Shown one piece after another: positions 2,601-17,335 of a stretch of 64,000 nucleotides of DNA. This stretch comes from Candidatus Woesearchaeota archaeon (GTDB lineage: Archaea > Nanobdellota > Nanobdellia > Woesearchaeales > DSVV01), in assembly GCA_018303325.1 (NCBI GenBank), contig JAGVYH010000002.1, positions 17,246 through 81,245 on the forward strand, in the 5' to 3' direction. The translations under genes were made by a program, and so were the position numbers. Under the pieces are notes generated by a model that was given only the letters and a program-made list of their open reading frames with translations, had not been told where the DNA came from and did no database searches. Within the stretch, counting starts at the first letter, position 1; each line of letters starts with the position of its first letter.

Positions 2601-2622
2601 TTACATTTCCTTCATTTAATTA

Positions 2623-3885
2623 TTAAATTGTTTTTTTTAGTAGTTTCCTTCTCAATTTTGCTGCTAAACCCATAATTGACAAAGGAATAAGTTCTGCAAA
2701 CATGTGAAATGTCTTGGATGTTGCAATTTTAAAAATAAAGGATTCGAGTTTTATTCGTCTTCCTTCAGCATTTGTATGTTTCAGTGGACTTATACCATAA
2801 ATTGGCTTTTGGTTATACTCATCCATTCTCATAAATGCACCAATTTTTTTATGTTTAATATTATGTTCATGAGAATTGATAAGTTTTTCTAATGGAAGTT
2901 GTTTAAGATTGATACTGTTTTTTACAAGCTCAAGAAGAGTTTTCCCTCTTTCTGTTCTTATAATCATTGTACCCCATGGTTCCCGATTAAGCTCATCTAA
3001 CCAAATATCACCAAATGAAATATCACTAAATTCAGCCATATAGTCTATGCATATTAAACATCTTTTAGGAACAAACATTGTATCAACAATGTCATAATAA
3101 TATTTAGGTAAGAAATGGGTTTTGCTTATTTTTGGGTTTTTTGTTTTAATTAAAAAACCACCTGGCCATTTTCCACCTCTGTATTCAATACTCAGGATAT
3201 CTTTAAACTTAATGCCCTGTTTTCTTATCAGGAACTTTGTTGCATTATTTGAAACATTAAATCCACAAAATAATCCTAAAATATATTTAATGTTACTTAC
3301 ATTTTTATGTTTATTTTTTTGTAATTTTCTTATACCATGTATATGGCATGGCAGTCCGACAAAAGCTATTTTTTTGAACTGCCTTGTCTTTTTCAAAATA
3401 CTATTTAAGGAAATAAGTGTATACTTTGATCCCTTAGCATGATTAATATCGGAAAGATTGTCTACTATTGTTGCTGTACACATCCATGGTTTACTCTCAG
3501 ACATTGAAACTACAATAGCGCCGTCTATCAATTTTTTTTTGAATGCCTTTGAAAGAATCGTTGTGATTGCTCCGCCGGAAGATGCGCCATTTCTTGTGCC
3601 TAATTGTTTAGACTGCACTAAATACAATGAGCTATAACATCCTATTTTTTTGTTTACTATGCTATTATCACCAAATACAAGTTTGTTCATTTGCGGATAA
3701 TTAAATTCAATCCCTGGACAATTATTGTAGCATTGACTACATGAAATACATTTATCATTATCAAAAAGAATTTCCTCATTATTTGTATTTAATGCTTCAA
3801 CAGGACAAATCCCAACACATGTTCCACATTTATTGCATAACTCAGGATTAATATTTTTAAAATTTAATTTTTTCAAATTTTGCAT
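2623..3885 (-). CDS. 4Fe-4S ferredoxin-domain / coenzyme F420 hydrogenase beta-subunit (FrhB)-like protein
   Basis: N-terminal 2x CxxCxxCxxxCP clusters. Central GASSGGAITT and VGLPCHIHG motifs of the FrhB family. Confidence 0.6.
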   Translation of the reverse strand: MQNLKKLNFKNINPELCNKCGTCVGICPVEALNTNNEEILFDNDKCISCSQCYNNCPGIEFNYPQMNKLVFGDNSIVNKKIGCYSSLYLVQSKQLGTRNGASSGGAITTILSKAFKKKLIDGAIVVSMSESKPWMCTATIVDNLSDINHAKGSKYTLISLNSILKKTRQFKKIAFVGLPCHIHGIRKLQKNKHKNVSNIKYILGLFCGFNVSNNATKFLIRKQGIKFKDILSIEYRGGKWPGGFLIKTKNPKISKTHFLPKYYYDIVDTMFVPKRCLICIDYMAEFSDISFGDIWLDELNREPWGTMIIRTERGKTLLELVKNSINLKQLPLEKLINSHEHNIKHKKIGAFMRMDEYNQKPIYGISPLKHTNAEGRRIKLESFIFKIATSKTFHMFAELIPLSIMGLAAKLRRKLLKKTI

Positions 3886-4036: not shown

Positions 4037-5869
4037 TTAAGAAGGATTCACATATTCTCTGACTCTAAAATAAGGATTATTTGCAGTTAAACCGGTTTTT
4101 TCAGTTACATCAATAGTATTATTCATTATCCATTCATATTGAGCGGGATATGATTTAGAGATATCAGCTAAAGTTTCTATTCCAATTCCCACTTTTTTTT
4201 GATAAAGATTAAATATAAAAAATTTAAGATTATTATTTTTTACTTGTTTTTCTATCCATGAAACATTAACAATTTTATAGTTTGCGCATATTTTTTGTGT
4301 ATAAAATGTCAGAGATTTGTCTTCGTTATATGCTAGGCAAGAATAATTAATACCTTCTGTATTTTTTTTCAGAAAATCACCAACTATTTTTATTGCTTCT
4401 GGCCTTTTGAAGATTCCAACACCAGATAATACTAAAAAACTAGCTGAAAGTATATTGATTGTGAGAAATATAATAATGAATATTGTTGCAATCTTTCTTA
4501 ATTGTTCTTTACGAAGATTTGTTCTTGAAATGTAAATTATTAAAATAACCGCCAAAAAAACAATAAACATAATAAATAAATAAAAGTACTGATTTGTGGT
4601 TTTTAGCATTGTTTCTATTACATAGTTCCCTTTAATATCAACAGAAAACAAAAAAGGGAAGAATTTTAATATTATAATCCAATAAATTGTAGTTAAGCCA
4701 ATTAACAATGGAAGTAACAGCTTATTCTGTCGGATAAATGAGATATATACTATATATATGCCTATTGCTGCAAATGTTACATATGCCGGACTAAACACAG
4801 TCTGTCTTTCTACATAAGGTTGTTTGTTGATATAATAAAGCAATGACACAGCTAAATAAGATAACCACAACAGATAATGTACATTTCTAACTCTTTTTGC
4901 AAGAGTTACAATTTTCGTTAAGGAGTAAATTAACCCAAATAATAATGGAATAAATATTAGCCCGATAAATGGAGTTAGAATTAAATACTTACCCATTAAA
5001 AGAATATTCTCAGTAAATGGCTTATAATTCATATATGCCTTGTTTATTCCTAAACTATGTATTAATATTATCTTGAACCAGTTTAAATATGAAGTATCGT
5101 TCCATAGAATCCAAGGCAGCAGCATATATAAAAAATAGATAAATAGTGCTATAATTGTTGCTATAATAAAATGCTTGTACTTACATAATAATTGTCTGCT
5201 TATTTGAGATGGGCTTTTGTTGTTGTTTAATCCTGTTTTAGCTGAAAAATAAATTTTTATTGCTATATAAGGAATTAAAGATAATATGGGTAAGATTCCT
5301 CTGAAATCTGTTGTTAATAGATTAACTAAACAAACAAATGCCGCTAAATAAGTATAATGTGGTTTGTTTTCTTCAATACTTTTGATCACTAAAAAAATAG
5401 TTAATACTACATAGAAAGTTAAAGCACTGTGCAAAAATCCGCTTCTTGAAAAAGCAATATGAAATGGAAGAAATGCAAACAAAATAGTGGCAAGATATGC
5501 TATCTTTGTATTAAACTGTCTTTTTAATAAATAATATAGAACAATAACTGTTAAACATGCAAAAATTATGCTTGGCAGCTTAACAGCAGTGTTAGTATAG
5601 CCAAATATAAAAATAAATGGAACAATAGGTGTTGCTGCAAATGGCCGATTATACTTATAACCACCATATGAAGTAGGTTCATCTGGAAAAGAAGGATAAA
5701 TCGCTCTTGAAGGATTTTCGATTATATGCATAGCAAGCTGGGCATACTCGGAATCATCTCCACCACTAAGTTCACCAGAATTATAAAATCTAACAGAAAA
5801 TGTTGAAACGACCAATATTAACAAAAAAAATAATTCAATTGTTTTTTGGTTAATCCTTTTTTTTTCCAT
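4037..5869 (-). CDS. GT-C fold glycosyltransferase (ArnT/PMT-like, GT39/GT83 family)
   Basis: 610 aa with more than 10 TM helices. First-loop acidic DDSEY motif. C-terminal soluble domain. Confidence 0.55.
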   Translation of the reverse strand: MEKKRINQKTIELFFLLILVVSTFSVRFYNSGELSGGDDSEYAQLAMHIIENPSRAIYPSFPDEPTSYGGYKYNRPFAATPIVPFIFIFGYTNTAVKLPSIIFACLTVIVLYYLLKRQFNTKIAYLATILFAFLPFHIAFSRSGFLHSALTFYVVLTIFLVIKSIEENKPHYTYLAAFVCLVNLLTTDFRGILPILSLIPYIAIKIYFSAKTGLNNNKSPSQISRQLLCKYKHFIIATIIALFIYFLYMLLPWILWNDTSYLNWFKIILIHSLGINKAYMNYKPFTENILLMGKYLILTPFIGLIFIPLLFGLIYSLTKIVTLAKRVRNVHYLLWLSYLAVSLLYYINKQPYVERQTVFSPAYVTFAAIGIYIVYISFIRQNKLLLPLLIGLTTIYWIIILKFFPFLFSVDIKGNYVIETMLKTTNQYFYLFIMFIVFLAVILIIYISRTNLRKEQLRKIATIFIIIFLTINILSASFLVLSGVGIFKRPEAIKIVGDFLKKNTEGINYSCLAYNEDKSLTFYTQKICANYKIVNVSWIEKQVKNNNLKFFIFNLYQKKVGIGIETLADISKSYPAQYEWIMNNTIDVTEKTGLTANNPYFRVREYVNPS

Positions 5870-6152
5870 AGTTTGTTTTAAATTTGTCAGGATTGTTCAT
5901 TTTTTAGATAAACTTAAGAAGTGATTAATAGTTTAAAAAGTTTCTGCACTTAAAATATTAAATTATAATTGAAAAAAAGTTAATATGAACAGAACAATGA
6001 ATTATTCAAAATTGAAATTTATGAATATAGCTTATAGATTTAAAAGTTCCGCAAACTATTTAAACCATTTGTCTTTTTTGAAGTTAGATAAAGCAATTTT
6101 TATTTTAAGGCAAAATGATATCACAGAAATCTAAAAAAATTTAGAGAAAAAA

Positions 6153-7523
6153 ATGAAAATTTTATTTGTTTATCCACCACCATTTGAAGATAAGATTTTT
6201 TCCAATTTAGTCTATCCTCCCCTAGGTATATTATTTCTTGCAAGCGTTGTTAGAGAAATGGGGCATGATGTAAAAGTATTTGATGCGAATGTGTTGCGTG
6301 CAAGTTTTGAAGAAACAGTTAATTATATAAAAGAAATTAAGCCAGACATAGTTGGAATAACAGCAGCAACTGCAAATGGACCAAGTACATTTAAGCTTGC
6401 AGCAAAGATAAAGGAAATCGAACCGTCTGTCAAAATTATTTCTGGTGGGCCACATATTACTGTCGCACCAGAAGAGTGCCTAAATGATGAAAATATTGAT
6501 TATATTCTTGTTGGTGAAGGTGAGGCAACAATTAAAGAGTTAATTGAAGCATTAGAATCAGGTAGTGACCCAAATAAAGTAAAAGGAATTGGTTTTAGAA
6601 AAGGAAAAAAAATAATTATAACACCAAAACGTGAATTAATTCATGATTTGGACTTATTGCCAATGCCGGCATATGATCTTATTCCTATCGACAAATATTG
6701 GTCACCACAAATTACTGAATTTCCGTTTACAAGCATGATAACAAGCAGAGGCTGCCCTTATCACTGCATATTTTGTGGTGTTCAAGCAATATTTGGCTAC
6801 CAATATCGTTTTATGAGTGCAGAAAAAATGTTTTTTCAGGTTCAGGAATTACAAAAAAAGTTTGATGTTAAGACAATCATATTTAAAGACAGCGAATTTG
6901 CTTTAAGAAAAGATAGAATAGAAAAATTTTGTGATTTAATCATTAAAAATAATGTTAAAGTAAAATGGCTTTGTAATGCACGCGTTAATAATATGACTAA
7001 TGAACTTCTAACAAAAATGAAAAATGCTGGATGTTATTCAATAACATATGGTGTTGAATCTGGTTCTGAAAGGATTCTTACTGTGCTTAAGAAAAATATT
7101 ACGTTGAACCAAGCACGAGAAACAATAAAACTCACAAAAGAAGTTGGTATTGAATGTGCAGCCAATTTTATATTAGGAAATCCGACAGAAACAAAAGAAG
7201 ATATCGAAAAAACAATAAACTTTGCGATTGAATTAAATCCAGATTATGCAATGTTTTCATATTTAGTTCCTTATCCTGGGACTGAGATTCATGAAATGGC
7301 AGCACATAATAGTTGGGTTATCAATGATTTAGATAATGTATATAAAAACAGCTCTGTGGTTATGAATGCTACGGCTTTAACAACAAAAGAGTTATCTAAA
7401 TATATGAAAAAAGCTTATTTTAAATTTTACTTTAGACCACGATTTATTTGGAAAACAATTAAAAACTTAAAATTCTCTGACTTAAAAACAAAACTGCCTG
7501 CTTTAATTGATATATTAAAGTAG
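6153..7523 (+). CDS. B12-binding domain radical SAM protein
   Basis: N-terminal cobalamin-binding Rossmann domain (PPLGILFLASV...DANV). CPYHCIFC radical SAM CxxxCxxC cluster. Confidence 0.85.
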   Translation: MKILFVYPPPFEDKIFSNLVYPPLGILFLASVVREMGHDVKVFDANVLRASFEETVNYIKEIKPDIVGITAATANGPSTFKLAAKIKEIEPSVKIISGGPHITVAPEECLNDENIDYILVGEGEATIKELIEALESGSDPNKVKGIGFRKGKKIIITPKRELIHDLDLLPMPAYDLIPIDKYWSPQITEFPFTSMITSRGCPYHCIFCGVQAIFGYQYRFMSAEKMFFQVQELQKKFDVKTIIFKDSEFALRKDRIEKFCDLIIKNNVKVKWLCNARVNNMTNELLTKMKNAGCYSITYGVESGSERILTVLKKNITLNQARETIKLTKEVGIECAANFILGNPTETKEDIEKTINFAIELNPDYAMFSYLVPYPGTEIHEMAAHNSWVINDLDNVYKNSSVVMNATALTTKELSKYMKKAYFKFYFRPRFIWKTIKNLKFSDLKTKLPALIDILK

Positions 7524-7646
7524 TTTATTTTCTCTTTAAATTTTATTATTTGAAATAAAGATTATTTTTTTATTTATAAAATATTACTCAAAAGCAATAA
7601 AACTTCATTAACTTTTTAAATTAATAATTATTCCTTAACAATAGTT

Positions 7647-9299
7647 ATGACTAAAAATAACATATCTAATCCCTACCTTAATTTTGTAATGAACAATATA
7701 GTTCCTAGAATCTTAACAAAGCTTGATAGAGATTACACTTCTCAAACATACGGCTGTTTTGACAGAAAATACTGGCATTACCGCATTAATGATTTTCCTT
7801 CACTTATAGAACAACAGCCTATGCTTGCTCTGGCGCAGTTATATACATGGAAAGATAAATCAAATATTTATTATAAAAATGAAAAAATAAGAGAATATAT
7901 TCTTGCTGCATTAAATTTTTGGAAAAATAAGCTGCATTCTGATGGAAGCGGAGATGAATATTGGCCAAATGAACATAGTTACCCACCAACAGTATTCCCT
8001 TTATTTGCTGCTTGTGAAAGTTATAAATTATTAAATCTCAACGATGATTCTTTAAAAAGAGCTATGCTTAAATCTGTAAACTTTATCTCGAAATGGAAAG
8101 AGAAGGGTGCTGTTAATCAAGAAATTGCATCTATTGCCGCTTTATACAGCGCTTATACAATCCTTAAGAAAAAAAGCATTTTGATTATAATTGATAATAA
8201 ATTAAAGAAAATAATTCCTCTTCAAACAAAAGAAGGCTGGTTTCCTGAGTATGGTGGTGCAGATTTAGGTTATTTAAGCGTAGCATTAGATTATGCAGCA
8301 AACTATTATCATTTAAGTAAAGATTCAAGAATTCTGCCACTTATTGAAAATATGATTGGATTTATAAAATATTTTGTTCATCCTGATGGAACATTTGGCG
8401 GCGATTATGGCAGCAGGAATACAGAATATTTTCTTTTGCATGGTTTAGAATTATTATCACAAAAGTATCCCCTTGCAAGAAGAATAGCTGACAAACTCTT
8501 AGAAAATATTAATACTGCTTATTATTTGCATAATGGAATTGATGACAGATATCTATGTGATTATTGCGGAAGATCTTTTGTTGGAGCAATGATTTCTTAT
8601 TCTCCTCAATCAGTAAATATAAAGTTGCCTTATGAACTGGAATTTGAGAAATGGTTTGCTTATTCAAAAATTTACATTAAAAGTACAAAATCAGTTTATA
8701 TTATTGTTAATCTCTTAAAAGGCGGAATAGTAAAGGTTTATAGTAAACAGAGCAACAAACACATAGAAAATAAAGAAGGTTTGCTCTTTAGTGATTGTGG
8801 ATATAATATTATTAATAGCAAAAATATTTTGACGACAAATTGGTTGGAATATGAATATAATATATTGATTAATAAGAATAATTTATTCGTCGACGGAGTT
8901 TTTCACAAACAATCTTTGTTTGTACTTACACCATTAACAAGTATCTTGTTAAGGTTTGCTGCCAAATTATTGGGTAAATTATTAATACCATTTGCAAAAA
9001 GAATAATGATCTCTTCTCAATCCATTTCATTAGTTACATTCAAAAGGAGTATATCATTATCAGATGAAAGCTTAATTATTCATGATTTCATTAGCTCACC
9101 ATTTATAATAAAAAAGTTATGTTCAATAAACCGCTTTTCTTTAAGATATGTTCCCTCTTCGCGCTTTTTTCAAATTAATGACTTGTTTATAATTAATAAA
9201 GAGCGAAAATATTTTAATATTAAAAAATTAGAATTAAAAAAAAGATTTGATTTTTTTAAGAAAGAAGAGAAAATACTAAATGTAAAAATAATTAATTAA
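7647..9299 (+). CDS. hypothetical protein (550 aa) in glycan locus
   Basis: Long ORF with ATG start and coding-like composition. No motif I can name with confidence. Confidence 0.5.
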   Translation: MTKNNISNPYLNFVMNNIVPRILTKLDRDYTSQTYGCFDRKYWHYRINDFPSLIEQQPMLALAQLYTWKDKSNIYYKNEKIREYILAALNFWKNKLHSDGSGDEYWPNEHSYPPTVFPLFAACESYKLLNLNDDSLKRAMLKSVNFISKWKEKGAVNQEIASIAALYSAYTILKKKSILIIIDNKLKKIIPLQTKEGWFPEYGGADLGYLSVALDYAANYYHLSKDSRILPLIENMIGFIKYFVHPDGTFGGDYGSRNTEYFLLHGLELLSQKYPLARRIADKLLENINTAYYLHNGIDDRYLCDYCGRSFVGAMISYSPQSVNIKLPYELEFEKWFAYSKIYIKSTKSVYIIVNLLKGGIVKVYSKQSNKHIENKEGLLFSDCGYNIINSKNILTTNWLEYEYNILINKNNLFVDGVFHKQSLFVLTPLTSILLRFAAKLLGKLLIPFAKRIMISSQSISLVTFKRSISLSDESLIIHDFISSPFIIKKLCSINRFSLRYVPSSRFFQINDLFIINKERKYFNIKKLELKKRFDFFKKEEKILNVKIIN

Positions 9300-9354
9300 T
9301 TAATTTAGGTTATAAGAACAAGAGGGTTAAAAATTAGTTATTTTTTATTAAATT

Positions 9355-10701
9355 TCATTTTGAATACATTTTCTCTTTCCATCCTCTTGCCACATTAGAA
9401 ATAGTATCATGATAAACATCTTCTTTTTTTGAAATATAATGAAGTAATCTTTCATAAACTCTCAAATATCTTTCATTTCCTGTGAGATAATCATCTGGAT
9501 GGGTAAGTATATTAATAATTCCACCAACATTATAAATATAATTTACTTTTTCTTTCCAAAGTTTAAGCATTTTGTTTGGGTTTAAATTTAAAGTATAGAT
9601 TAACCTGTAATCCTGCGGCAAAGTTAGTGGCACTTCAACCATATTATTAATCATAAAAGGAAACACCGTGCAACAACCGCTTCTTTTAGCTAATGGTGAA
9701 AGAATATCTGTGTCTGGAACAGAAGAATCACATTCAAAATAATTGCTTAGCTCTTTTAAAAAAGACTCATTTCTCATTAAAATAGGTGACCTGAAAGAGG
9801 TTGGCTTAAATCTTGCAAATGTAGTTTTTGCATGATTTAATCTTTTAGCAACACCTTTTTTATTCAAAAAAGACAATTTTCCGTCGTGATTATACCCATG
9901 TATACCAATCTCACAGCCATCTTTTACAAGTATATTTAGTTTCTTAAAGTTTAGATTATACTTATTTGAAAGAACATTCCAAGATGAATTGAAATTATAC
10001 CTTTTTTCAATTTCTCTGATAACAGAAATATTTCTGAATGATGTTTCAGTTTCCATGTCATGTGTAGCAATAAAACAGCATTTATTATTGTTTGGCCAAT
10101 GGTTAGATTTTCTGCCAGTCTTAATTTCAAGAGCCTTTTCCAACAAATACCTTAACACATCAACGCTAGGTTCAACCGGCCATGTCGGAAACCTAAACTT
10201 GTTTTTTAATGCTTTATTTGAATTAGTATTTATACTTGTGTTTATATCATTATCAATATCAATTTTCTTTTTTAAATTTGTTTTACGAATCATATTTCTA
10301 AAAAAAGGCGGGATTAAATTATATGAAAAAGGCAGTCGTGTAAATAATGCCCTTTTATGCAAAAAATATCTTTCAAAAAGAAGGTAATTAATTATATTTT
10401 CAAAATTATTAAGCTCAATATTTTTGCTGGTATTACTGAGGTTGAGAAAATCAAACTCCTTACCACCTACAATGATAGAAACATCTGGATTATTTGTGTT
10501 TTTATTGCAGATATTTTGGATTGGAAACATAATTAGTTGTTTACACCAATGTGGCAAAAGTTTTTTATTATTAATTTTAAGAGTTGCAATCTGTTTTTTA
10601 ATATGTGAATCAGTTGAGGAAGTTGATAGCGACTGCATCAACAGATGCTTTTTATATCTAATTGGAATATTTAAACTATTCAGCATGGTTTCTTCTGACA
10701 T
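9355..10701 (-). CDS. polysaccharide deacetylase family (CE4) protein, ArnD-like deformylase/deacetylase with N-terminal extension
   Basis: ATHDMETE and EIGIHGYNHD motifs resemble ArnD DVDTFRG and EVGLHAWDHH. Confidence 0.55.
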   Translation of the reverse strand: MSEETMLNSLNIPIRYKKHLLMQSLSTSSTDSHIKKQIATLKINNKKLLPHWCKQLIMFPIQNICNKNTNNPDVSIIVGGKEFDFLNLSNTSKNIELNNFENIINYLLFERYFLHKRALFTRLPFSYNLIPPFFRNMIRKTNLKKKIDIDNDINTSINTNSNKALKNKFRFPTWPVEPSVDVLRYLLEKALEIKTGRKSNHWPNNNKCCFIATHDMETETSFRNISVIREIEKRYNFNSSWNVLSNKYNLNFKKLNILVKDGCEIGIHGYNHDGKLSFLNKKGVAKRLNHAKTTFARFKPTSFRSPILMRNESFLKELSNYFECDSSVPDTDILSPLAKRSGCCTVFPFMINNMVEVPLTLPQDYRLIYTLNLNPNKMLKLWKEKVNYIYNVGGIINILTHPDDYLTGNERYLRVYERLLHYISKKEDVYHDTISNVARGWKEKMYSK

Positions 10702-10936
10702 GACATAAACAATTGCCAGAAGGTTAATAAATCTTATTAATTCGTGTTTCTTTTTTATAATAAAAGGTTAATAGTGAAAACAATGAAGAGATTAGAATAA
10801 AAGTAGGCAATAATGATAATATGGATTATAACCCTATTTTTGTTCTTATTTTCGTCTACAACTGGTGACAATTCTATTGCAATATAAGATTAATACAATA
10901 TAAACTTTTTTAAAGCAATCTGCATTCCTGCAATCT

Positions 10937-11929
10937 ATGTATAAAGGACTTAAAGTCGCATTGGTTATTCCTGCATATAATGAAGAGAAATTAATAAAGC
11001 CAACCTTAGAAACTGTTCCTAAAACAATTGACAAAATATTTGTTATTGATGACTGCAGCACAGATCATATGCCTTCTGTTGTAAAAGAATGTATGAAAAA
11101 TGATAAAAGAATAGTTGGCATAAGGCATAAAAAAAATAAGGGTGTTGGACAAGCAATTATCACTGGTTATAAAGAAGCTGTGATGCTTGGATATGATGTT
11201 GCTGTTGTGATTGGTGGGGACAATCAAATGGATTTAAATGACCTACCTAATTTTTTAGAGCCAATTGCCAGCAAGGAAGCTGATTATGTCAAAGGCAACA
11301 GGTTTATGTTTGATTATTCACAAAAATACAATAACACAGTTGAAGGTAGCGCTTTTAAGGTAATGCCAAGTCAACGTTTCTTTGGCAACTCAATTCTCTC
11401 ATTCATTGTCAAATGGGCATCTGGCTATTGGAAGATTTTTGATACACAAGATGGTTACACTGCAATTACAAGACAAGCAATTGAAAAAATTGATTGGAGA
11501 AAGGCGTGGAAAGGTTATGGTTATGTTGGAGATTGGCTGGCATTATTTAATGTTTATAATTTACGAGTTAAAGATGTTCCTAGACGAGCCATTTATCTGA
11601 AAGGAGAAAGGCAGTCACAAATAAAGATAGGAAGATATATTCTAAAAGTATTGCCTAGAATGATACGATGCTTTTTTTCGAGAATGAAACATAAGTATAT
11701 ATTTCAGGATTTCCATCCTTTAGTTTTATTTTATTTTTTAGGATTTAGTTTATTACCATTGGGTATTTTATTAGGAATTTACATATTTATTAAATGGATG
11801 ATTTATTTCCCAATTGATATTTCAGGAACAAAAGCAGTATTAGTAGCATTATTCATCATTACAGGCATACAAAGCCTTTTCTTTGCTATTTGGTTTGATA
11901 TGCAAGCAAATGAATATTTGCAGAAATAG
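10937..11929 (+). CDS. GT2 family polyprenyl-phosphate glycosyltransferase (ArnC/DPM1-like)
   Basis: VALVIPAYNEE...VIDDCSTD GT-A motifs and DxD region. Two C-terminal TM helices. Confidence 0.85.
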   Translation: MYKGLKVALVIPAYNEEKLIKPTLETVPKTIDKIFVIDDCSTDHMPSVVKECMKNDKRIVGIRHKKNKGVGQAIITGYKEAVMLGYDVAVVIGGDNQMDLNDLPNFLEPIASKEADYVKGNRFMFDYSQKYNNTVEGSAFKVMPSQRFFGNSILSFIVKWASGYWKIFDTQDGYTAITRQAIEKIDWRKAWKGYGYVGDWLALFNVYNLRVKDVPRRAIYLKGERQSQIKIGRYILKVLPRMIRCFFSRMKHKYIFQDFHPLVLFYFLGFSLLPLGILLGIYIFIKWMIYFPIDISGTKAVLVALFIITGIQSLFFAIWFDMQANEYLQK

Positions 11930-12006
11930 AATGAATAAGTAAAATTATTAACTAGATGTATTAAAAAACTTAAAACTAAACATAATTTCATTAAACATAT
12001 AAACAT

Positions 12007-13446
12007 TTGAGACTGAATAAACACAAAATGAAGATAATTTTTATTAATCCACCATTTACTAATTATGTTGGCGGCATAAAAGGGTATGGAGGAAAATCTA
12101 TGCCCTTAAACCTAACTTATTTAGCATCGTATTTAATAAGCAAAGGTTATGAAAATACTTCAATTCTAGATGCCGAAGCATTAGAATTAAGTTATGAACA
12201 AGTATTAGAACATATAAAGAAAGAAGACCCAGACATTATTGGTTTCACATCACCTACCCCTTCTTTTCAGCAGGTTGTTGATTTATCTAACTTGATAAAA
12301 CAACAAAACCCTCACGTGAAAATAATCATCGGTGGACCACATTCATCTGCTCTGCCACTAGACACAGCAAAAGAACCATCTTTAGATTTTGTTTGTTTTG
12401 GAGAAGGAGAATTAACAATGTTAGAGCTTGTTGAATTCATAGAAAAAGGCAGAACAGATTATGATAAAATTGATGGATTAATATATAAAGAAGGGGAAAA
12501 AATTATTCAAAACAAGCAAAGAAAATTAACAGAGAATTTAGATATTTTTCCTTTCCCTGTAAGAAATTTAGTGCCTAGACATCTTTATTATCCACCGCCA
12601 ACAAAAAGTGTAAGTGACAAAAAAGGAACTTCTATGGTAACTTCCAGAGGTTGTCCATTCAATTGTACATATTGTGTTGCAAAAGTAGTATGGACAAGAA
12701 GAGTGAGATATAGAAGTGTTAAAAATGTCGTCGATGAAATGGAAGAATGTGTTAACAAGTATAACCTTGGGGAATTTAATATTCATGACGAGCTGTTTAC
12801 AGCAAATGAAAAGAGAGTTATAGAATTATGCAAAGAGATAATTAATAGAAAACTTGATGTTGGATGGGTATGTATGGCAAGAGTAGATACAATTCATTCA
12901 AAAGAAATGCTGGAATATATGAAAAAAGCTGGATGCGGTAAAATTGTTTTTGGTTTTGAGTCTGGCTCACAAAAAATTTTAGATCTCATGAAAAAAGGTA
13001 CAACTGTTGAACAAGCAATACGTGCTGTAAAACTTGTTAAAGAATCTGGAATCAAAACATCTGGAAATTTCATGTTAGGGAACATTGGTGAAACGCTAGA
13101 AACAATGAGAGAAACAATTGATATGGCTAAAAAACTAAATACAGATACTATTGCTTTTTTTCAGACAAGCCCGTATCCTGGCACAGAGATTTATTATACT
13201 GCACTTGAAAAAGGGTATTTAAGAAAAGATATACAATGGAAGGATTTTGCACTATTATCTAAGACTGCCCCAGCTTTAAATCTTCCAAACTTACCGCCAG
13301 AAGAAGTAGCAAAATGGGTAAAAAAAGGATATAAAGAATTTTATTTAAGGCCCAGTTATATATTAAATCAGATAGCATGTATAAAAAATTGGCGTGATGC
13401 CAAAAGAATGTGGCAGGGAATAAAACTTCTTGTTCAGGTTAGTTAA
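12007..13446 (+). CDS. B12-binding domain radical SAM protein
   Basis: B12-binding N-domain. TSRGCPFNCTYC radical SAM cluster. Confidence 0.85.
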   Translation: MRLNKHKMKIIFINPPFTNYVGGIKGYGGKSMPLNLTYLASYLISKGYENTSILDAEALELSYEQVLEHIKKEDPDIIGFTSPTPSFQQVVDLSNLIKQQNPHVKIIIGGPHSSALPLDTAKEPSLDFVCFGEGELTMLELVEFIEKGRTDYDKIDGLIYKEGEKIIQNKQRKLTENLDIFPFPVRNLVPRHLYYPPPTKSVSDKKGTSMVTSRGCPFNCTYCVAKVVWTRRVRYRSVKNVVDEMEECVNKYNLGEFNIHDELFTANEKRVIELCKEIINRKLDVGWVCMARVDTIHSKEMLEYMKKAGCGKIVFGFESGSQKILDLMKKGTTVEQAIRAVKLVKESGIKTSGNFMLGNIGETLETMRETIDMAKKLNTDTIAFFQTSPYPGTEIYYTALEKGYLRKDIQWKDFALLSKTAPALNLPNLPPEEVAKWVKKGYKEFYLRPSYILNQIACIKNWRDAKRMWQGIKLLVQVS

Positions 13447-13460
13447 ATTTTGAGAAATTA

Positions 13461-14240
13461 TCAACTCTCTTGCTTTTCATATTTCTTGCAAATAAGCATA
13501 CCTCTAAAAAATAATAATTTAGGTATCTTTATGTTTTCAATCTGCTTTAAAAGATTAAACAAAAAAGAAGGTAAGAATTTCTTTACGGATGATGAACACT
13601 CAATAAAACTCATTATTTCAATTTGGGAAGTTAGGCTTAATTTTTTGCAGAAAGCAATAAGTTTAAATGGAAAAGAACCATATGAATTTATACTTATTAT
13701 TATATTAAGCATCCTTCTTAATATTACAAATGGATGAAATCCATTATAAAACTCGATGTATGCAACACCATCTGGCTTTAAGACTCGACTAATTTCTCTT
13801 AATGCATTTTTTTGATTTTCAAAATGGTAAAATGAGTTGAAACAAAAAATCACATCAAAACAATTATCTGGATATGGCAATCTTTCTGCTGATGCTATCT
13901 TAAATTTAACATATTTGTTTTCCTTTTTTGCATGAGTTATCATCAAAGAAGAAAGGTCGCATGCATGCAATTCTTTAGCTATAAGATTCATATGCTTTAA
14001 ATATAACCCTGGACCACAACCCAAATCCAAGACATTTAAGTTTTTTTTGTCTTTTTCTCTGTCTATATATTCATGCCTCTGAGTAGTAATAATCCTCTCA
14101 AATTTGTCAGAATCTCCAAATCGCTCGCCGTAATAAGGTATTATTTTACTATAATGTTTATTAAGCTTTTTCATAGAATTAACTTCGCGATTGTTTAAGA
14201 GATCATCCATTGTAATATACCTTAATCTTCTCAACAACAT
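13461..14240 (-). CDS. class I SAM-dependent methyltransferase
   Basis: VLDLGCGPGLY motif I and LKPDGVAYIEF. Alternative start at MDDLL (about 14210) would remove the overlap with the upstream gene. Confidence 0.75.
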   Translation of the reverse strand: MLLRRLRYITMDDLLNNREVNSMKKLNKHYSKIIPYYGERFGDSDKFERIITTQRHEYIDREKDKKNLNVLDLGCGPGLYLKHMNLIAKELHACDLSSLMITHAKKENKYVKFKIASAERLPYPDNCFDVIFCFNSFYHFENQKNALREISRVLKPDGVAYIEFYNGFHPFVILRRMLNIIISINSYGSFPFKLIAFCKKLSLTSQIEIMSFIECSSSVKKFLPSFLFNLLKQIENIKIPKLLFFRGMLICKKYEKQES

Positions 14241-15333
14241 ATCTTATCTGCTCTTCTGTCATTTCAGGGAACATAGGCAAACTTAACATTGTATTTGCAG
14301 CTTCCTCTGTTACAGGGAAACTTTCTTCATTCAGATTCATGTATCTATAAGCTGACTGAAGATGTAATGGTATTGGATAATGAACACCACATTCTATCTT
14401 GTTGTCTTTCAGGAATTGTTGAAGTTTATCTCTTTTCTCCCTGTTTTTTGTTTTTATAACATAAAGATGATAAACATGTTTTGCATAATCAGCTTCAAAA
14501 GGCGTTATAACATCATCAACATTTGAAAGCAATTCATTGTATAATCTTGCGTTTCTTCGTCTAGCTTCAGTCCACTTGTCAAGATACTTTAACTTAACTT
14601 TCAATACTGCTGCCTGCAATGCATCTAACCTTTCATTCAATCCTTCGAAATCATGCTCGTATTTTGAGCCATGTTTTCTGCCATGGTTTCTCCAAGCATC
14701 AACTTTTTTAGCAATCTCATCGTTATTAGTTACAACCGCTCCGCCATCACCATAACACCCTAAATTTTTTCCAGGGAAAAAACTAAAACAACCTATATCA
14801 CCAACAGGCACTTTTTTATTGTTAAACTCTGCACCATGGGCTTGAGCGCAGTCTTCAATGACTATTAAATCATTTTCTTCTGCAATCTCCTTTATTGGTT
14901 TCATATTGCAAGATTGGCCAAATAAGTGTACAGGTATTATTGCTTTTGTTTGGGGAGTGATAGCATTTTTGATTTTGTCGACATTAATAGTGTATATTTT
15001 AGGATCAATATCAACAAATTTAACTTTTGCACCACAATGAGTGATTACTTCTGCTGTAGCAATAAATGTGTTAGGAACAGTTATAACTTCATCATCATGC
15101 TTTATGCCTGCTGATTTTAATGCTAGGAACAAAGCGCTTGTGCCATTGCTTACACCAACACAATGTTTTGCATTGCAATATGCAGCAAATTCTTTTTCAA
15201 AGTTAGTTACGTTTTCTCCCATAATAAATGCAGTATTATCTATTACATTTTTGATAGCATTATCTATTTCATCTTTTATTGAAAAGTATTGAGCTTTTAA
15301 GTCAACAAATTTTATTGTTTGATTATCATTCAT
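14203..15333 (-). CDS. DegT/DnrJ/EryC1/StrS family sugar aminotransferase (WbpE/ArnB-like)
   Basis: Fold-type I PLP aminotransferase signature and VGVSNGTSAL motif, full length. Confidence 0.9.
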   Translation of the reverse strand: MNDNQTIKFVDLKAQYFSIKDEIDNAIKNVIDNTAFIMGENVTNFEKEFAAYCNAKHCVGVSNGTSALFLALKSAGIKHDDEVITVPNTFIATAEVITHCGAKVKFVDIDPKIYTINVDKIKNAITPQTKAIIPVHLFGQSCNMKPIKEIAEENDLIVIEDCAQAHGAEFNNKKVPVGDIGCFSFFPGKNLGCYGDGGAVVTNNDEIAKKVDAWRNHGRKHGSKYEHDFEGLNERLDALQAAVLKVKLKYLDKWTEARRRNARLYNELLSNVDDVITPFEADYAKHVYHLYVIKTKNREKRDKLQQFLKDNKIECGVHYPIPLHLQSAYRYMNLNEESFPVTEEAANTMLSLPMFPEMTEEQIRYVVEKIKVYYNG

Positions 15334-15422
15334 GAATTACATCTCCGTTATTATTAATTATAATTTGTCAAATTATTGTCACGGAATAATTTGTATAAAA
15401 ATCAATCAATGTTAATAGATTA

Positions 15423-16046
15423 TTATTCATAAACCATACTTCCATCTTCCCACTTTAAATCTTTAATATCTTTTATGATTTTTGCAGGATTGCCTGCAAC
15501 AACTTTTTCAGCAGGCACATCTTTTGTGACGACACTTCCTGCGCCAATTAATGCATTCTTCCCAATTTTTATTCCTGGCAGAATAGTTGAATTTGCGCCA
15601 ATTTTGGCATTCTCTTCGACAACTGCTCCATCAAGAAACTCTTTTGTTCTTTTTGCACTTGGATACGGCGCATTTGTAAACACAACCTTCGGGCCAATCC
15701 AGCATCCTTTTTTTAGTATTGTAAACTCTGGAATAAAGCATTGGCAATGAATTCTGACATCATCCTCTATTGTTACATGATGCTCAATAACTGTTTTTGT
15801 TCCAATGCTTACATTGTTACCAATAATATTTTCTTCTCGGATAAACACATCATGACCTGTCTGAAAATTATCGCCGATTTTGTTGCCTGCATAGATAATT
15901 GTGTGTGAACGAATAACTGAGTTTCCACCAATAACTATTTCAAGCTCACCATCATTTCTTCCTCGTGGTAGGATACCAATTATACAGAATTCTCCAACTA
16001 AGATATCTTTTGTTAATTTTACATTTTTATGAATAATAGTGGACAT
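15423..16046 (-). CDS. hexapeptide-repeat (left-handed beta-helix) sugar N-acetyltransferase (WbpD/PglD-like)
   Basis: Repeated [LIV]GxxxxI hexapeptides. Confidence 0.85.
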   Translation of the reverse strand: MSTIIHKNVKLTKDILVGEFCIIGILPRGRNDGELEIVIGGNSVIRSHTIIYAGNKIGDNFQTGHDVFIREENIIGNNVSIGTKTVIEHHVTIEDDVRIHCQCFIPEFTILKKGCWIGPKVVFTNAPYPSAKRTKEFLDGAVVEENAKIGANSTILPGIKIGKNALIGAGSVVTKDVPAEKVVAGNPAKIIKDIKDLKWEDGSMVYE

Positions 16047-16342
16047 AATTAAACCTTGTTAATTAATAAAACATTATTAAAACAAGCAGAAGAAAAGTGT
16101 TTATATTGTTTGTGAAAGTGAGAATTTATTGAATAAACTTAGTATAATTATTGTAGAACTAAATAAAAAAATGCAAACAATCTGCAGCATAAATGTTGCA
16201 GTATTGACTGTTAGCATTTTTAAATTTGAAAAAGACTTCATCTGTGACTTAAATGCTCAGAAATCAAAGAGGTCTGGCATGCGAGGAATGCTTTAGCATT
16301 TCAAATAGGTCATAGTATTCGCTTTTCCAAATAAAAAAAACA

Positions 16343-17335
16343 TTATTTTAATTCTAACTCATCACCAAATTCATCAGATTGCATAGCAAGCTCACAAGTT
16401 CTTGTAGTGTAATACTCTTCTTCGCCAATATTCTGCACTTCAGCTATGTTTTTATCAGAATTCTTAACACATGTTATAAAATGCGAGAGCTGTTCTTTTA
16501 ATGGCTCATTTTTTCTTATTTCTATATTTAGAGGAATTTCTTTGACAACTTCGCCATCCTTTATATAAAGCGGGTATACTGTCATGATTTGATCGAAAAA
16601 ATCCACATAAATTTTTTCATTTTCAGCAATAATCCACATATCTCTTTTTTTCAATGGATGACAACAGCTTACATCAATTGTTGCAAAAAAATCATTATAA
16701 TTTAAGACAATAACAGCACTATCTTCATTTCTGTCGTCGAGAAAATTTGTGCATTTACAGTACACTTTTTTTGGTTTTTGTTCTAAGACAAAGTTAAGTA
16801 TGTCAATCATGTGAATACCTAAGTTAAACACAACACCTGAGTCTGCTCTTGGCGGTTTGCTTGAGTGAACATACCTCGAAGTAATATACTGTATTTTACC
16901 GCTTTTTTCCTTAAGCCTTTTCTTAAGTTCAATTACTGCTGGGTTAAACCTGAATAAATAACCCACAGACAATATCAGCTTTTTCTTTTTTGCCAGTTCA
17001 ACAAGCTCTTTTGCTTTTTCTGAACTTAAGGTAATTGGTTTTTCAACAAGAACATGTTTGCCTGCATTCAAACATTCTTTAACAATTTCGTAATGATAGT
17101 TTGTTGGAACAACTACTGAAACTGCATCTACTAAAGGCAACATTTTTTTATAGTCTGTAAAGAATTGTGTGCTGTATTGTTTTGCTAGTGTTTCTTTGTT
17201 TTGGTCAATATCTGACAAGCCAATTAAATTACAATAATTAGATGAAACAGATGAAGATAGCTCTGAAAATATTCTTAAATGGTTTATACCCCATTTTCCT
17301 GCTCCGATAATTCCTATTTTTGTCATGTTTAACAC
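16343..17335 (-). CDS. Gfo/Idh/MocA family NAD-dependent oxidoreductase (UDP-sugar 3-dehydrogenase, WbpB-like)
   Basis: N-terminal GIIGAGKWG Rossmann motif and family-typical length. Confidence 0.85.
   Translation of the reverse strand: MLNMTKIGIIGAGKWGINHLRIFSELSSSVSSNYCNLIGLSDIDQNKETLAKQYSTQFFTDYKKMLPLVDAVSVVVPTNYHYEIVKECLNAGKHVLVEKPITLSSEKAKELVELAKKKKLILSVGYLFRFNPAVIELKKRLKEKSGKIQYITSRYVHSSKPPRADSGVVFNLGIHMIDILNFVLEQKPKKVYCKCTNFLDDRNEDSAVIVLNYNDFFATIDVSCCHPLKKRDMWIIAENEKIYVDFFDQIMTVYPLYIKDGEVVKEIPLNIEIRKNEPLKEQLSHFITCVKNSDKNIAEVQNIGEEEYYTTRTCELAMQSDEFGDELELK

Follow-up and report, generated by a model that had tools for sequence, protein, structure and literature searches.

Systems combining a glycosyltransferase, a deacetylase and a UPF0104 protein have been experimentally shown to make aminoglycolipids (PMC12713373; PMC10128005). 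UPF0104 proteins have also been predicted to act as flippases in archaeal glycosylation, with either GT2 and GT-C genes or glycosyltransferase and deacetylase genes as their neighbors (PMC5898192). Examination of the window, a 64,000-nucleotide stretch of DNA from a Candidatus Woesearchaeota archaeon, reveals a gene set whose logic is like that of the bacterial aminoarabinose (Arn) pathway, and closer still to those of the archaeal AglD/AglS-type systems and the GpgSDF/HexSDF aminoglycolipid systems. The module itself is new and unstudied. Most likely, it makes a 3-amino sugar of an unusual kind, which is loaded on a membrane lipid carrier, loses an acetyl group, is flipped and is transferred to a cell-surface acceptor. 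Overall, we consider it somewhat better than an even bet that the module serves surface glycosylation by a lipid-carrier ('three-component plus') route in a DPANN-type archaeon.

An initial annotation had described an Arn-like aminosugar module spanning 4037-17335. Its protein families, C3 triad and pathway logic stand, as do its six cited ORFs, all found with exactly the ends given. Its boundaries are too narrow, and the ArnE/F-like flippase that it suggested looking for was not found. The module is not an Arn orthologue, given that the host looks archaeal, the aminotransferase is C3-acting and ArnD is not the CE4 protein closest to that of the window. Its fuller extent is approximately 558-17335. 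Three genes of the same conserved set fall outside the earlier span (558-1361, 1671-2600 and 2623-3885), and four lie inside it but were left out of its parts (6153-7523, 7647-9299, 12007-13446 and 13461-14240). The components are as follows:

558..1361, + strand: class I SAM methyltransferase MT1, probable accessory part (Pfam Methyltransf_11, 2.6e-22)
1671..2600, - strand: UPF0104/LPG_synthase_TM protein, candidate flippase in place of ArnE/F (Pfam PF03706, 5.8e-41)
2623..3885, - strand: FrhB-like flavoprotein with an N-terminal 2x[4Fe-4S] ferredoxin domain (Pfam FrhB_FdhB_C, 2.2e-35; FrhB_FdhB_N, 3e-16; Fer4)
4037..5869, - strand: GT-C glycosyltransferase of the PMT_2 family, 610 aa, about 12 TM segments and a C-terminal soluble domain (Pfam PMT_2, 1.5e-11; PMT, 2e-05)
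6153..7523, + strand: B12-binding radical SAM enzyme, copy a (Pfam B12-binding, 4.6e-26; Radical_SAM, 6e-25)
7647..9299, + strand: conserved 550-aa protein (homologues with weak Ulvan_lyase_N matches)
9355..10701, - strand: long-form CE4-fold deacetylase, 448 aa, an N-terminal domain of about 200 aa and a catalytic domain (motifs and fold evidence)
10937..11929, + strand: GtrB/ArnC/DPMS-type polyprenyl-phosphate glycosyltransferase (GT2), 330 aa (Pfam Glycos_transf_2, 6.8e-23)
12007..13446, + strand: B12-binding radical SAM enzyme, copy b (Pfam; NCBIfam HpnJ, 260 bits)
13461..14240, - strand: class I SAM methyltransferase MT2 (Pfam Methyltransf_11, 1.7e-25)
14203..15333, - strand: PLP-dependent sugar 3-aminotransferase of the DegT family, 376 aa (Pfam DegT_DnrJ_EryC1, 3e-126)
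15423..16046, - strand: left-handed beta-helix N-acetyltransferase for a 3-amino sugar, 207 aa (Pfam Hexapep, 6e-23)
16343..17335, - strand: GFO/IDH/MocA oxidoreductase, probable UDP-GlcNAc 3-dehydrogenase, 330 aa (Pfam GFO_IDH_MocA, 1.9e-29)

Given that each of these ORFs has conserved homologues and that the arrangement recurs in other genomes (loci with L numbers below), they are not a chance collection. They form five transcription units on alternating strands within a glycan island of 35 kb, where other pathways are encoded as well; hence, the pairing of the GT2 with the GT-C is not proven.

The best characterized relatives of the three sugar-making enzymes all act at C3, which bears out the earlier claim of a triad for a 3-acetamido sugar through 3-oxidation, 3-transamination and N-acetylation (GnnA/WbpB-, QdtB/WbpE- and QdtC/WbpD-type enzymes). 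The oxidoreductase matches the NCBIfam archaeal UDP-GlcNAc 3-dehydrogenase model (2.5e-71; 240 bits, under the cut-off of 450), and its best PDB match is 7bvj (1.4e-21), which is named as GnnA in bioRxiv 10.1101/2024.11.05.622173. The aminotransferase is of the C3 type, unlike ArnB of the Arn pathway: its PDB matches are 7b0d (1e-125), QdtB (1.9e-102), DesV (2oga, 1.5e-83) and WbpE (2.5e-75), with ArnB reaching only 1e-40. The acetyltransferase recovers QdtC (1.4e-46) and WlbB (3mqg, 3e-18).

The CE4 protein has Pfam matches below threshold, namely Polysacc_deac_1 (21.6 bits; cut-off 23.1), DUF2334 (20.6) and DUF2194 (20.7). A homologue from Omnitrophota (L013) matches DUF2334 over the cut-off with 37.8 bits, and this match is also precomputed for many other homologues. 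Across 22 homologues the motifs T-H-D215-x-E217, H268-GYN-H272-D, F-R304-SP and T-H401-PD are kept, such that the catalytic and metal residues (D215, D/E217, H268, H272, R304 and H401) are all retained. Position 217, the presumed metal ligand, is Glu rather than Asp in the window protein and either residue across the homologues; this Glu and the sub-threshold Pfam matches speak against the proposed role. Hydropathy revealed neither a signal peptide nor a TM segment, suggesting that the enzyme is cytoplasmic and acts inside the cell, a location in which it is like ArnD and GpgD. ArnD, a lipid-linked-sugar deformylase, is among its structural neighbors. Homologues are few (33 among 5.8e9 proteins) and the N-terminal domain is rare (10 matches in 1.84e9 representatives). 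In the broader CE4 clade GT4 glycosyltransferases are fused to CE4, as in the GT4::CE4 proteins of Pirellulaceae, consistent with a glycosylate-then-deacetylate rule.

The GT2 gene is divergently transcribed from the CE4 gene. Searched singly, its product matches NCBIfam AglJ (3.6e-23) and, in the PDB, DPMS (2e-7) and ArnC (4e-5), the latter two limited to the N-terminal 120 residues. It is only 20-27% identical to most other CE4-linked GT2s, but a profile of 8 others aligns it end-to-end (residues 6-324, 116 bits). A 10-sequence profile that includes the window GT2 and its close relative in L005 (88% identity) recovers GtrB (1.8e-77) and ArnC (3e-62) over the full length. Together with a C-terminal TM hairpin in the hydropathy plot (residues 267-319), these profile matches uphold its description as ArnC-like, within the GtrB/ArnC/DPMS polyprenyl-phosphate transferases; its predicted sugar substrate is the amino sugar of the module.

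The GT-C lacks any sequence-level match in the PDB. An AF2 model (pLDDT 81) finds ArnT (5ezm/5f15) as the best solved structure (E 6e-9, TMt 0.64), with Pmt4 of the protein O-mannosyltransferases ranking 25th (E 3e-4), so that the GT-C is rightly called ArnT-like, if remotely (13% identity). In 19 homologues the first outer loop, after TM1, contains an invariant G36-G-D38-D39-S. We predict that this enzyme takes the sugar off the lipid carrier and attaches it to an acceptor on the outside. In the module ArnA is absent and ArnE/F were not found, and the UPF0104 protein is instead the candidate flippase. It has about 8-9 hydrophobic segments, scores 110.9 bits with NCBIfam TIGR00374 'flippase-like domain' (over the 43.2 cut-off) and has homologues in L001, L003, L006, L007, L008 and L037.

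The radical-SAM and methyltransferase genes belong to the conserved module and are not incidental neighbors. In NCBIfam, copy a scores highest with HpnJ (255 bits) and then BchE (252 bits), each under its own cut-off; the HpnJ match of copy b covers the whole model, under a cut-off of 577. Copy b is the one kept in close relatives, with orthologues in L005 (89% identity) and L006 (73%). A related radical-SAM gene adjoins the CE4 gene in L001, L003, L019 and L037, and in L013 the two are fused (B12-rSAM::CE4), flanked by GT2 and methyltransferase genes. Relatives of MT1 lie beside a UPF0104 or radical-SAM gene in L003, L006, L013, L037 and L075, and methyltransferases follow radical-SAM/CE4 genes in L012, L013, L037 and L075. 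The GT-C/UPF0104 pair has two conserved partners, the FrhB-like flavoprotein, which perhaps supplies electrons to the radical-SAM/cobalamin enzymes, and the 550-aa protein. The former adjoins GT-C and UPF0104 genes in L005, L007, L008 and L090, and is fused to a methyltransferase in L007. The latter has no match in Pfam, NCBIfam or PDB sequences and at least 593 homologues, every one 'hypothetical'; its gene is co-located with GT2, FrhB-like or nitroreductase, and UPF0104 genes in L005, L006, L007, L089 and L090.

Gene-neighborhood analysis covered 16 archaeal and bacterial loci with the long-form CE4; a GtrB-like GT2 lies within 6 kb of it in 12 of them and is directly adjacent (<250 nt) in seven, from DPANN, Omnitrophota and Planctomycetota. 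Around short-form CE4 genes such a GT2 is near in about 4 of 70 loci and adjacent in none. This conserved gene pair is consistent with deacylation following lipid loading. The triad, B12-radical-SAM, methyltransferase, UPF0104 and GT-C genes are frequent company of the long form. L037 has the order GT2 - UPF0104 - CE4 - rSAM - MTase and L010 the order GT2 - CE4 - GtrA-like - PMT_2 GT-C with no triad nearby; PMT_2 and YfhO GT-Cs are present in L011 and L003. Counting against the favored reading, the GT-C homologues of L006-L008 are accompanied by UPF0104, FrhB-like and 550-aa genes but by neither CE4 nor triad.

In L001, L003, L022 and L076 triad genes (GFO or acetyltransferase), not GT2, adjoin the CE4 gene, which equally fits deacetylation of a nucleotide sugar. 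Under such a scheme the CE4, radical-SAM and methyltransferase enzymes would all act on the soluble precursor, for instance removing the 2-N-acetyl group of UDP-GlcNAc3NAc before the amine is methylated or re-acylated, and the GT2 or other transferases of the island would use the product. The cytoplasmic, membrane-segment-free CE4 is in keeping with this, as are short-form relatives fused to an NAD-dependent sugar epimerase/dehydratase and to an ATP-grasp ligase. However, GT2-CE4 adjacency is the commonest arrangement and persists without a nearby triad (L010, L012 and L019), ArnD with its lipid-linked substrate is a structural neighbor, and we know of no characterized CE4 enzyme that acts on a nucleotide sugar. 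We regard this scheme as unlikely and infer that the CE4 protein works on a lipid-linked sugar. A rather unlikely possibility is that the GT2 glycosylates a lipid that remains in the membrane, the CE4 converts it to a cationic aminoglycolipid, which the radical-SAM and methyltransferase enzymes may alter further, and UPF0104 flips the end product to the outer leaflet, with the GT-C serving another pathway. GpgSDF and HexSDF share exactly this logic of glycosyltransferase, cytoplasmic deacetylase and UPF0104. Moreover, GpgD is COG3233, the counterpart of Pfam DUF2334, a model that the window CE4 family matches; the Pirellulaceae fusions fit as well, several bacterial long-form CE4 loci have no recognizable GT-C, and both radical-SAM enzymes score highest with HpnJ, which acts on deacetylated lipid-linked glucosamine. 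Against this, GpgS and HexS are GT-B lipid glycosyltransferases, whereas characterized relatives of the GT2 use polyprenyl phosphate; furthermore, a GT-C shares the neighborhood in the window, L003, L010 and L011, and forms a tight conserved pair with UPF0104 in L006-L008.

Three or more other sugar pathways share the window (nonulosonic acid cluster, Wzx, and additional DegT, radical-SAM and GT4 genes), which, together with the alternating strands, could suggest independent genes of a large mosaic surface-glycan island, with a coincidental Arn-like parts list. The conserved neighborhoods largely refute this very improbable reading, as distant Archaea and Bacteria carry the same set with proteins 30-45% identical, in loci that include a gene fusion and operon-like arrays on one strand. 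GT2 enzymes are also known to pair with CE4 polymer deacetylases (PgaC/PgaB and IcaA/IcaB), and NCBIfam PgaC/IcaA weakly matches the GT2 N-terminus (1.9e-9). That the CE4 is an extracellular deacetylase of the PgaB/IcaB/PgdA type, with an exported polysaccharide synthesized by the GT2 as its substrate, is nonetheless extremely improbable.

In the favored lipid-carrier pathway, homology suggests that the oxidoreductase, aminotransferase and acetyltransferase would start from a cytoplasmic nucleotide HexNAc, most probably UDP-GlcNAc, and yield a 3-acetamido-3-deoxy (2,3-diacetamido) sugar nucleotide. The GT2 would then place a single residue of this sugar on dolichyl or polyprenyl phosphate at the inner membrane face. 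Going by conserved adjacency, the CE4 would take one N-acetyl group off the lipid-linked sugar to expose an amine; adjacency and fusion suggest that the B12-radical-SAM enzyme(s) and SAM methyltransferase(s) might alter this amine or neighboring carbons, most simply by methylation. The UPF0104 protein would flip the lipid-linked sugar, and the GT-C would hand it to an outer-face acceptor. The order of these steps is provisional, as is the acceptor, which could be the glycan of an S-layer or pilin, or else a membrane lipid; it cannot be lipid A, given a host that is apparently a DPANN archaeon. Acetylation at N3 followed by deacetylation looks wasteful, unless it is the N2 acetyl group that the CE4 takes off.

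All six open reading frames (ORFs) on which the initial annotation based an Arn-like lipid-carrier aminosugar transfer module are present in the window, with their ends exactly as described. The sequence is AT-rich (~30% G+C), and neither a tRNA scan nor an Rfam scan of it returned a match. The family labels of the GT-C enzyme, GT2 glycosyltransferase, aminotransferase, acetyltransferase and oxidoreductase agree with both Pfam and NCBIfam. Between and alongside these are genes that had been passed over or touched upon only in passing, namely those for the B12-binding radical-SAM (rSAM), methyltransferase, 550-aa, FrhB-like and UPF0104 proteins. The gene-neighborhood comprises:

558-1361: class I methyltransferase (Pfam)
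1671-2600: UPF0104/LPG_synthase_TM membrane protein (Pfam)
2623-3885: FrhB-like Fe-S flavoprotein (Pfam)
4037-5869, minus strand: GT-C enzyme of the PMT_2 family (Pfam)
6153-7523: B12-binding radical-SAM protein (Pfam)
7647-9299: 550-aa protein with no family match
9355-10701, minus strand: CE4-like protein, with sub-threshold matches alone (Polysacc_deac_1, DUF2334 and DUF2194)
10937-11929, plus strand: GT2 glycosyltransferase (Pfam/NCBIfam)
12007-13446: B12-binding radical-SAM protein (Pfam)
13461-14240: class I methyltransferase (Pfam)
14203-15333, minus strand: DegT-family aminotransferase (Pfam/NCBIfam)
15423-16046, minus strand: hexapeptide-repeat acyltransferase (Pfam/NCBIfam)
16343-17335, minus strand: GFO/IDH/MocA oxidoreductase (Pfam/NCBIfam)

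Elsewhere in the window, an archaeal-type class I LysRS (48336-50273) and Pth2 (56110-56490) both score above their NCBIfam equivalog cut-offs, and the GT-C enzyme and the CE4-like protein have their nearest homologues in entries labeled Candidatus Woesearchaeota or Nanoarchaeia. Adjoining the LysRS gene is one for a complete RpoD-like sigma-70 factor with regions 1.2, 2, 3 and 4 (50353-51924, minus strand), in agreement with the report that sigma-70 genes are genuine features of Woesearchaeota genomes (PMC8204110). The sigma-70 gene had at first pointed to a bacterial host, a reading that we rejected in favor of a DPANN archaeon on the strength of the LysRS and Pth2 scores, the labels of the homologues and that report. 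In a further protein (60492-62036, plus strand) a Sigma70_r4 segment is joined to a PEP-utilizers mobile domain.

The genes of the proposed 3-amino-sugar triad are contiguous (14203-17335). The best curated model for the oxidoreductase is the archaeal UDP-GlcNAc 3-dehydrogenase (NF040723; 2.5e-71, below the equivalog cut-off), and its best solved relative is 7bvj (1.4e-21), cited in a preprint (bioRxiv 10.1101/2024.11.05.622173) as the UDP-GlcNAc 3-dehydrogenase GnnA. Solved relatives of the aminotransferase are 7b0d, QdtB (2e-102), DesV and WbpE (2.5e-75), with ArnB far behind (1e-40); a search for literature on MMP0350-0352 and on 7B0D found none. The acetyltransferase is related to QdtC (1.4e-46) and more distantly to WlbB (3e-18). 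Thus, the best solved relatives of all three enzymes act at C3, and a GFO-family 3-dehydrogenase, a DegT 3-aminotransferase and an LbH N-acetyltransferase are encoded together, as the comparison with WbpB/WbpE/WbpD had implied. That comparison stands for the chemistries; as for the canonical triad itself, the nearest solved relatives are instead GnnA, QdtB and QdtC. The same succession of GFO-family C3 oxidation, PLP transamination and LbH N-acetylation is seen in WbpB/WbpE/WbpD of P. aeruginosa, WlbA/C/B of Bordetella, GnnA/GnnB, the archaeal UDP-GlcNAc 3-dehydrogenase pathway and QdtB/QdtC. No UDP-GlcNAc 6-dehydrogenase (WbpA, UDPG_MGDP_dh) was detected among the scanned ORFs of the window, including all those of at least 300 aa, and hence the substrate is probably non-uronic UDP-GlcNAc. 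Likewise, the pairing of WbpA with the 2-epimerase WbpI that would mark a uronic-acid substrate was not found in the window, and the oxidoreductase is nearest to the UDP-GlcNAc-specific GnnA and NF040723. Judging from these sequence relationships, the product is likely to be UDP-2,3-diacetamido-2,3-dideoxy-hexose rather than its uronic acid.

Searched alone against the PDB, the GT2 protein recovered the P. furiosus Dol-P-Man synthase (2e-7) and ArnC (4e-5) with its N-terminal half only. A profile built from the window protein and nine GT2s of related loci, of which eight are neighbors of CE4 homologues, retrieved GtrB (5ekp) as the top match (1.8e-77), followed by ArnC (3e-62 to 2e-59) and DPMS (5e-39), and its alignments with GtrB and ArnC run the full length, including the membrane part. 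In a leave-out test, residues 6-324 of the window protein aligned to a profile of eight other GT2s with 116 bits; because this alignment is end-to-end, the protein can be placed in the polyprenyl-phosphate glycosyltransferase family. The label ArnC-like is accordingly apt at the level of the family, with a predicted GT-A domain followed by a C-terminal transmembrane (TM) hairpin (residues 267-319) and a profile match to ArnC at 3e-62.

The CE4 protein belongs to a rare family, with 33 homologues among 5.8 billion proteins. A 22-member alignment showed that H214, D215, E264, H272, F303, R304, D325 and H401 are invariant and that H268 and D273 are nearly so, while position 217 is either D or E, with E in the window protein and its nearest relatives. 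The conserved residues map to motifs 1 (T-F-D-x-D), 2 (H-x3-H), 3 (R-x-P) and 5 (x-H), with the previously quoted EIGIHGYNHD occupying residues 264-273. This mapping is confirmed by profile alignments to the M. smegmatis deacetylase 3rxz (2.9e-20), in which T-H-D-x-D pairs with T-F-D-V-D and HGYNHD with HGYLHE, and to H. pylori HP0310 (1.1e-14). The putative metal triad (Asp-His-His), catalytic Asp base, Arg and catalytic His thus all appear to be retained. The initial annotation would have been refuted by loss of the His-His-Asp triad; the triad is kept, with the caveat of the Asp-to-Glu replacement at 217. As it had anticipated, Pfam matches Polysacc_deac_1 (PF01522) to this ORF, though at 21.6 bits against a cut-off of 23.1. 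DUF2334, which we take to be equivalent to COG3233, the family of GpgD, is borderline in the window protein (20.6 bits), and relatives exceed its cut-off. The description as ArnD-like is valid for the structural neighborhood and not for orthology, 3rxz, HP0310 and 1z7a all being closer than ArnD. Neither a signal peptide nor a membrane segment was found, which places the protein in the cytoplasm. Its first ~200 residues constitute an extra N-terminal domain (N-domain) with conserved motifs P-F-x-Y-x2-I-P-x3-R and F-P-x-W-P-x-E; ten relatives of this domain (E<=1e-3) were recovered from 1.84 billion representative proteins, all within the long-form CE4 family.

The GT-C enzyme belongs to a small family (26 homologues) with an invariant G-G-D-D-S directly after TM helix 1, where GT-C enzymes have their catalytic acidic motif. 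It matches the Agl23 model weakly (23.5 bits against a cut-off of 126), and PDB sequence searches with the single sequence and with a 19-sequence profile recovered nothing, such that fold comparison alone was informative. The best match of its AlphaFold model (pLDDT 81) is ArnT (5ezm/5f15; E 6e-9, TM 0.57/0.64, 13% identity), followed by oligosaccharyltransferases, with the first protein O-mannosyltransferase at rank 25 (E 3e-4). Hence, the modeled fold speaks against a grouping with protein O-mannosyltransferases, which was the other outcome that would have counted against the initial annotation. The small ArnE/F-like flippase that it had suggested might be present was not found, there being no small 4-TM ORF within positions 1-20000; in its place is the UPF0104 protein, which scores above its family cut-off. 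UPF0104 (arCOG00899) has been predicted to be a flippase of archaeal glycosylation pathways, with neighborhoods combining it with GT-C enzymes and AglD-like GT2s or with polysaccharide deacetylases and glycosyltransferases; a trio of arCOG00897, arCOG00899 and arCOG00563 was predicted, and archaeal neighborhoods of UPF0104, GT-C and GT2 are already described (Makarova et al., PMC5898192). In the window all three genes lie inside 10.3 kb, and a trio of GT2, flippase and GT-C also occurs in three of the compared loci from other genomes (L003, L006 and L010).

The contextual connections of the CE4 protein were studied in 88 loci, obtained from the neighborhoods of its homologues and by scanning 185,579 species genomes, and analyzed with tblastn, phmmer and hmmsearch. 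The catalytic domain by itself (short form) is frequent among Planctomycetota and Bacteroidota; the form with the N-domain (long form) is seen in DPANN archaea, Omnitrophota, Planctomycetota, Desulfobacula and WOR-3. A GtrB-like GT2 is encoded no more than 6 kb from the long form in 12 of 16 loci and is its immediate neighbor in seven (the window, its close relative L005, L010, L011, L012, L013 and L014); near the short form it was seen in 4 of ~70 loci, adjacent in none. Triad genes are found alongside the long form in the window, L001, L003, L005, L013, L014, L037 and L076, and a B12-radical-SAM gene adjoins it in L001, L003, L019 and L037. The linkage extends to fusion: an ORF of the Candidatus Omnitrophica MAG CAIMPC010000007.1 (L013, 8372-10993) codes for an 873-aa rSAM-CE4 protein, with a GtrB-like GT2 gene before it and a methyltransferase gene after it. 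In Desulfobacula (L037) the genes for GT2, UPF0104, CE4, rSAM and methyltransferase follow each other on one strand, and L010 has the order GT2, CE4, a small GtrA-like protein (a weak match) and a PMT_2 GT-C, with no triad nearby. A PMT_2 GT-C is also encoded in L011 and a YfhO-type GT-C in L003. Homologues of the window GT-C are always flanked by UPF0104, usually with FrhB-like and 550-aa genes nearby. A GT-C partner was not evident among other large membrane proteins of bacterial loci: the 548-aa protein of L013 showed no relation to the GT-C family by hhalign, those of L019 and L076 had no significant Pfam match (L019 16400-18298 has a weak DUF4131 match, E 0.0056, below the cut-off), and the ones in L075 are Nuo/Mrp subunits. 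As for fusions elsewhere in the family, the short-form domain is fused to GT4 in Pirellulaceae and, in other cases, to NAD-dependent epimerase/dehydratase, ATP-grasp ligase or DUF354 domains (L066 5545-7851, L087 8522-10768 and L088 6876-9011; P0030 and P0031), and the broader CE4 clade shows fusions of all these kinds.

The best-supported reading, which we hold with slightly better than even confidence, is a five-step lipid-carrier pathway: 1) a nucleotide-linked 3-acetamido sugar would be made; 2) the GT2 would load the sugar onto a lipid phosphate, presumably dolichyl or polyprenyl phosphate; 3) the CE4 protein would de-N-acetylate it at the inner face, after which the rSAM and methyltransferase proteins would methylate or otherwise edit it; 4) the UPF0104 protein would flip the lipid-linked sugar; 5) the GT-C enzyme would pass it to an acceptor outside. 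The data establish the family of each protein, the retention of catalytic residues, a cytoplasmic CE4 protein and the conserved linkage with its fusion; the sugar, carrier, step order, acetyl group removed, rSAM chemistry, flippase cargo and acceptor are deduced. The CE4 protein might instead deacetylate the nucleotide sugar, which we consider rather unlikely, the main argument for its acting after the GT2, on the lipid-linked sugar, being that the GT2-CE4 pairing persists without the triad. Deacetylation of a secreted polymer is rejected as hardly credible for a protein with neither signal peptide nor membrane segment. A coincidental mix of genes in a mosaic island is highly improbable; linkage of the GT2, CE4 and rSAM genes is conserved across the compared loci.

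An SDF-type aminoglycolipid as the end product is an unlikely outcome, even with a cytoplasmic deacetylase (COG3233/DUF2334 or CE4) and a UPF0104 protein both encoded, as such a system would entail. In GpgSDF of P. aeruginosa a GT4 enzyme, a COG3233 deacetylase and a UPF0104 protein produce glucosaminyl-phosphatidylglycerol (PMC12713373), and HexSDF of C. difficile, with an MGDG-synthase-like HexS, produces an aminohexosyl glycolipid (PMC10128005). Both share with the window a glycosyltransferase, a cytoplasmic N-deacetylase and a UPF0104/MprF-like flippase, which together place a cationic aminosugar on lipid. However, their synthases, GT4 in GpgS and MGDG-synthase-like in HexS, are of the GT-B type and work on phospholipid or glycolipid end products, whereas the synthase in the window is a GT-A GtrB-like GT2. 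Moreover, they lack the GT-C, 3-amino triad and rSAM, all of which the window has.

Comparison of the five-step pathway with the L-Ara4N system, to which the module had been likened, upholds the lipid-carrier logic, but no component appears to be orthologous to Arn. ArnA, ArnB and ArnE/F were not found in the module, the aminotransferase being of the C3 type: Arn installs the amine at C4 through ArnA/ArnB, and the window at C3 through the dehydrogenase, aminotransferase and acetyltransferase. The acyl group is formyl in Arn and predicted to be acetyl here. The sole formyltransferase (20912-21685) belongs to a neighboring nonulosonic-acid cluster. UPF0104 would replace ArnE/F; the CE4 protein, unlike ArnD, has the extra ~200-aa N-domain; and B12-radical-SAM, methyltransferase, FrhB-like and 550-aa proteins are added to the set. 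The Arn acceptor is lipid A, which an archaeal host makes implausible, and hence the acceptor would differ. A likeness in layout is also seen to GtrA/GtrB/GtrC, CsbB/GtcA/YfhO and AglD (GT2::UPF0104)/AglJ with AglS, where a GT2 loads a lipid-phosphate monosaccharide and a flippase and an outside GT-C follow. The flippase of these three-component systems is either small or UPF0104; among loci related to the window, YfhO is employed in L003 and a GtrA-like protein in L010. What the three-component systems carry are unmodified hexoses or HexNAc, and they lack deacetylases, rSAM enzymes and methyltransferases acting at the lipid stage. The architecture itself, lipid-carrier monosaccharide transfer, is a known one; the new elements would be an undescribed deacetylase subfamily and the lipid-stage rSAM/methyl editing.

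For such editing, a parallel in step order is offered by calditol synthase and by HpnI, HpnK and HpnJ, which carry out glycosylation, deacetylation and radical rearrangement of lipid-bound glucosamine (PMC13459092). The rSAM-CE4 fusion of L013 is a further likeness. Both window rSAM proteins have HpnJ as their best model, over the full length (254.7 and 259.8 bits), but neither reaches the equivalog cut-off (NCBIfam TIGR03471, 577.6 bits), under which scores of 255-260 bits fall far short. HpnK falls in another deacetylase family, and HpnI does not resemble GtrB. Furthermore, an HpnJ-like ring contraction would abolish the glycosyl-donor function that the GT-C needs. The module combines elements of the UPF0104, SDF and Hpn systems with Arn logic. 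Our literature search found no description of a combination of the triad, GtrB-like GT2, long-form CE4, rSAM/methyltransferase, UPF0104, ArnT-like GT-C, FrhB-like and 550-aa proteins.

More speculatively, and with considerable doubt, the GT2-CE4-rSAM unit may represent an unrecognized pathway of Archaea and Bacteria in which a lipid-linked aminosugar is deacetylated and then rebuilt on the lipid by cobalamin-radical chemistry, either through C-methylation or through a ring contraction of the HpnJ/calditol kind that might yield an aminocyclitol. If so, DPANN archaea, Omnitrophota, Planctomycetota and Desulfobacterota would share a new class of cationic surface sugars or head-groups. Very little is known of the surface chemistry of DPANN archaea, which live attached to host cells; a dedicated route for placing free or methylated amines there would alter the surface charge and could thereby influence how they attach to hosts and resist cationic agents, as with Ara4N, GlcN-PG and HNHDRG in bacteria. 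The analysis moreover delimits a rare deacetylase subfamily, distinguished by its novel N-domain, whose GtrB-like partnership and rSAM fusion lead to hypotheses of lipid-stage sugar editing, and offers the 'flippase-like' UPF0104 protein a concrete candidate cargo.

It further flags the FrhB-like and 550-aa proteins as conserved and without known role. The latter has no match in Pfam, NCBIfam or PDB sequences, and its homologues are named 'hypothetical' only, with weak Ulvan_lyase_N labels. A four-gene sub-module of GT2, FrhB-like, 550-aa and UPF0104 proteins has counterparts in the glycan clusters of cultivated bacteria and archaea, including Orenia marismortui (L089 9001-13299), where a nitroreductase takes the place of the FrhB-like flavoprotein, and Methanocalculus sp. 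(L090 6884-11592). The FrhB-like protein of L007 forms a fusion with a methyltransferase.

Beyond the triad, the nonulosonic-acid cluster (18554-27042) codes for a 575-aa CMP-transferase-NeuB fusion, a PIG-L deacetylase, a formyltransferase and a hydrolysing-type Epimerase_2, with genes for 5-formyl-THF cyclo-ligase and FolD embedded in it, a content that points to a nonulosonic acid N-formylated from a C1 supply of its own. A second glycan sub-cluster (27060-34948) contains the third B12-radical-SAM gene of the window (30369-31853) together with genes for a Wzx-type flippase (28657-30183), a protein weakly similar to Glyphos_transf, two further DegT aminotransferases and a truncated methyltransferase. 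Unusually for a small DPANN genome, bacterial-style two-component genes are found at 41905-48329, namely, a response regulator, a HAMP-PAS histidine kinase and a 1082-aa histidine kinase with four GAF-domain matches and a PAS domain (Pfam).
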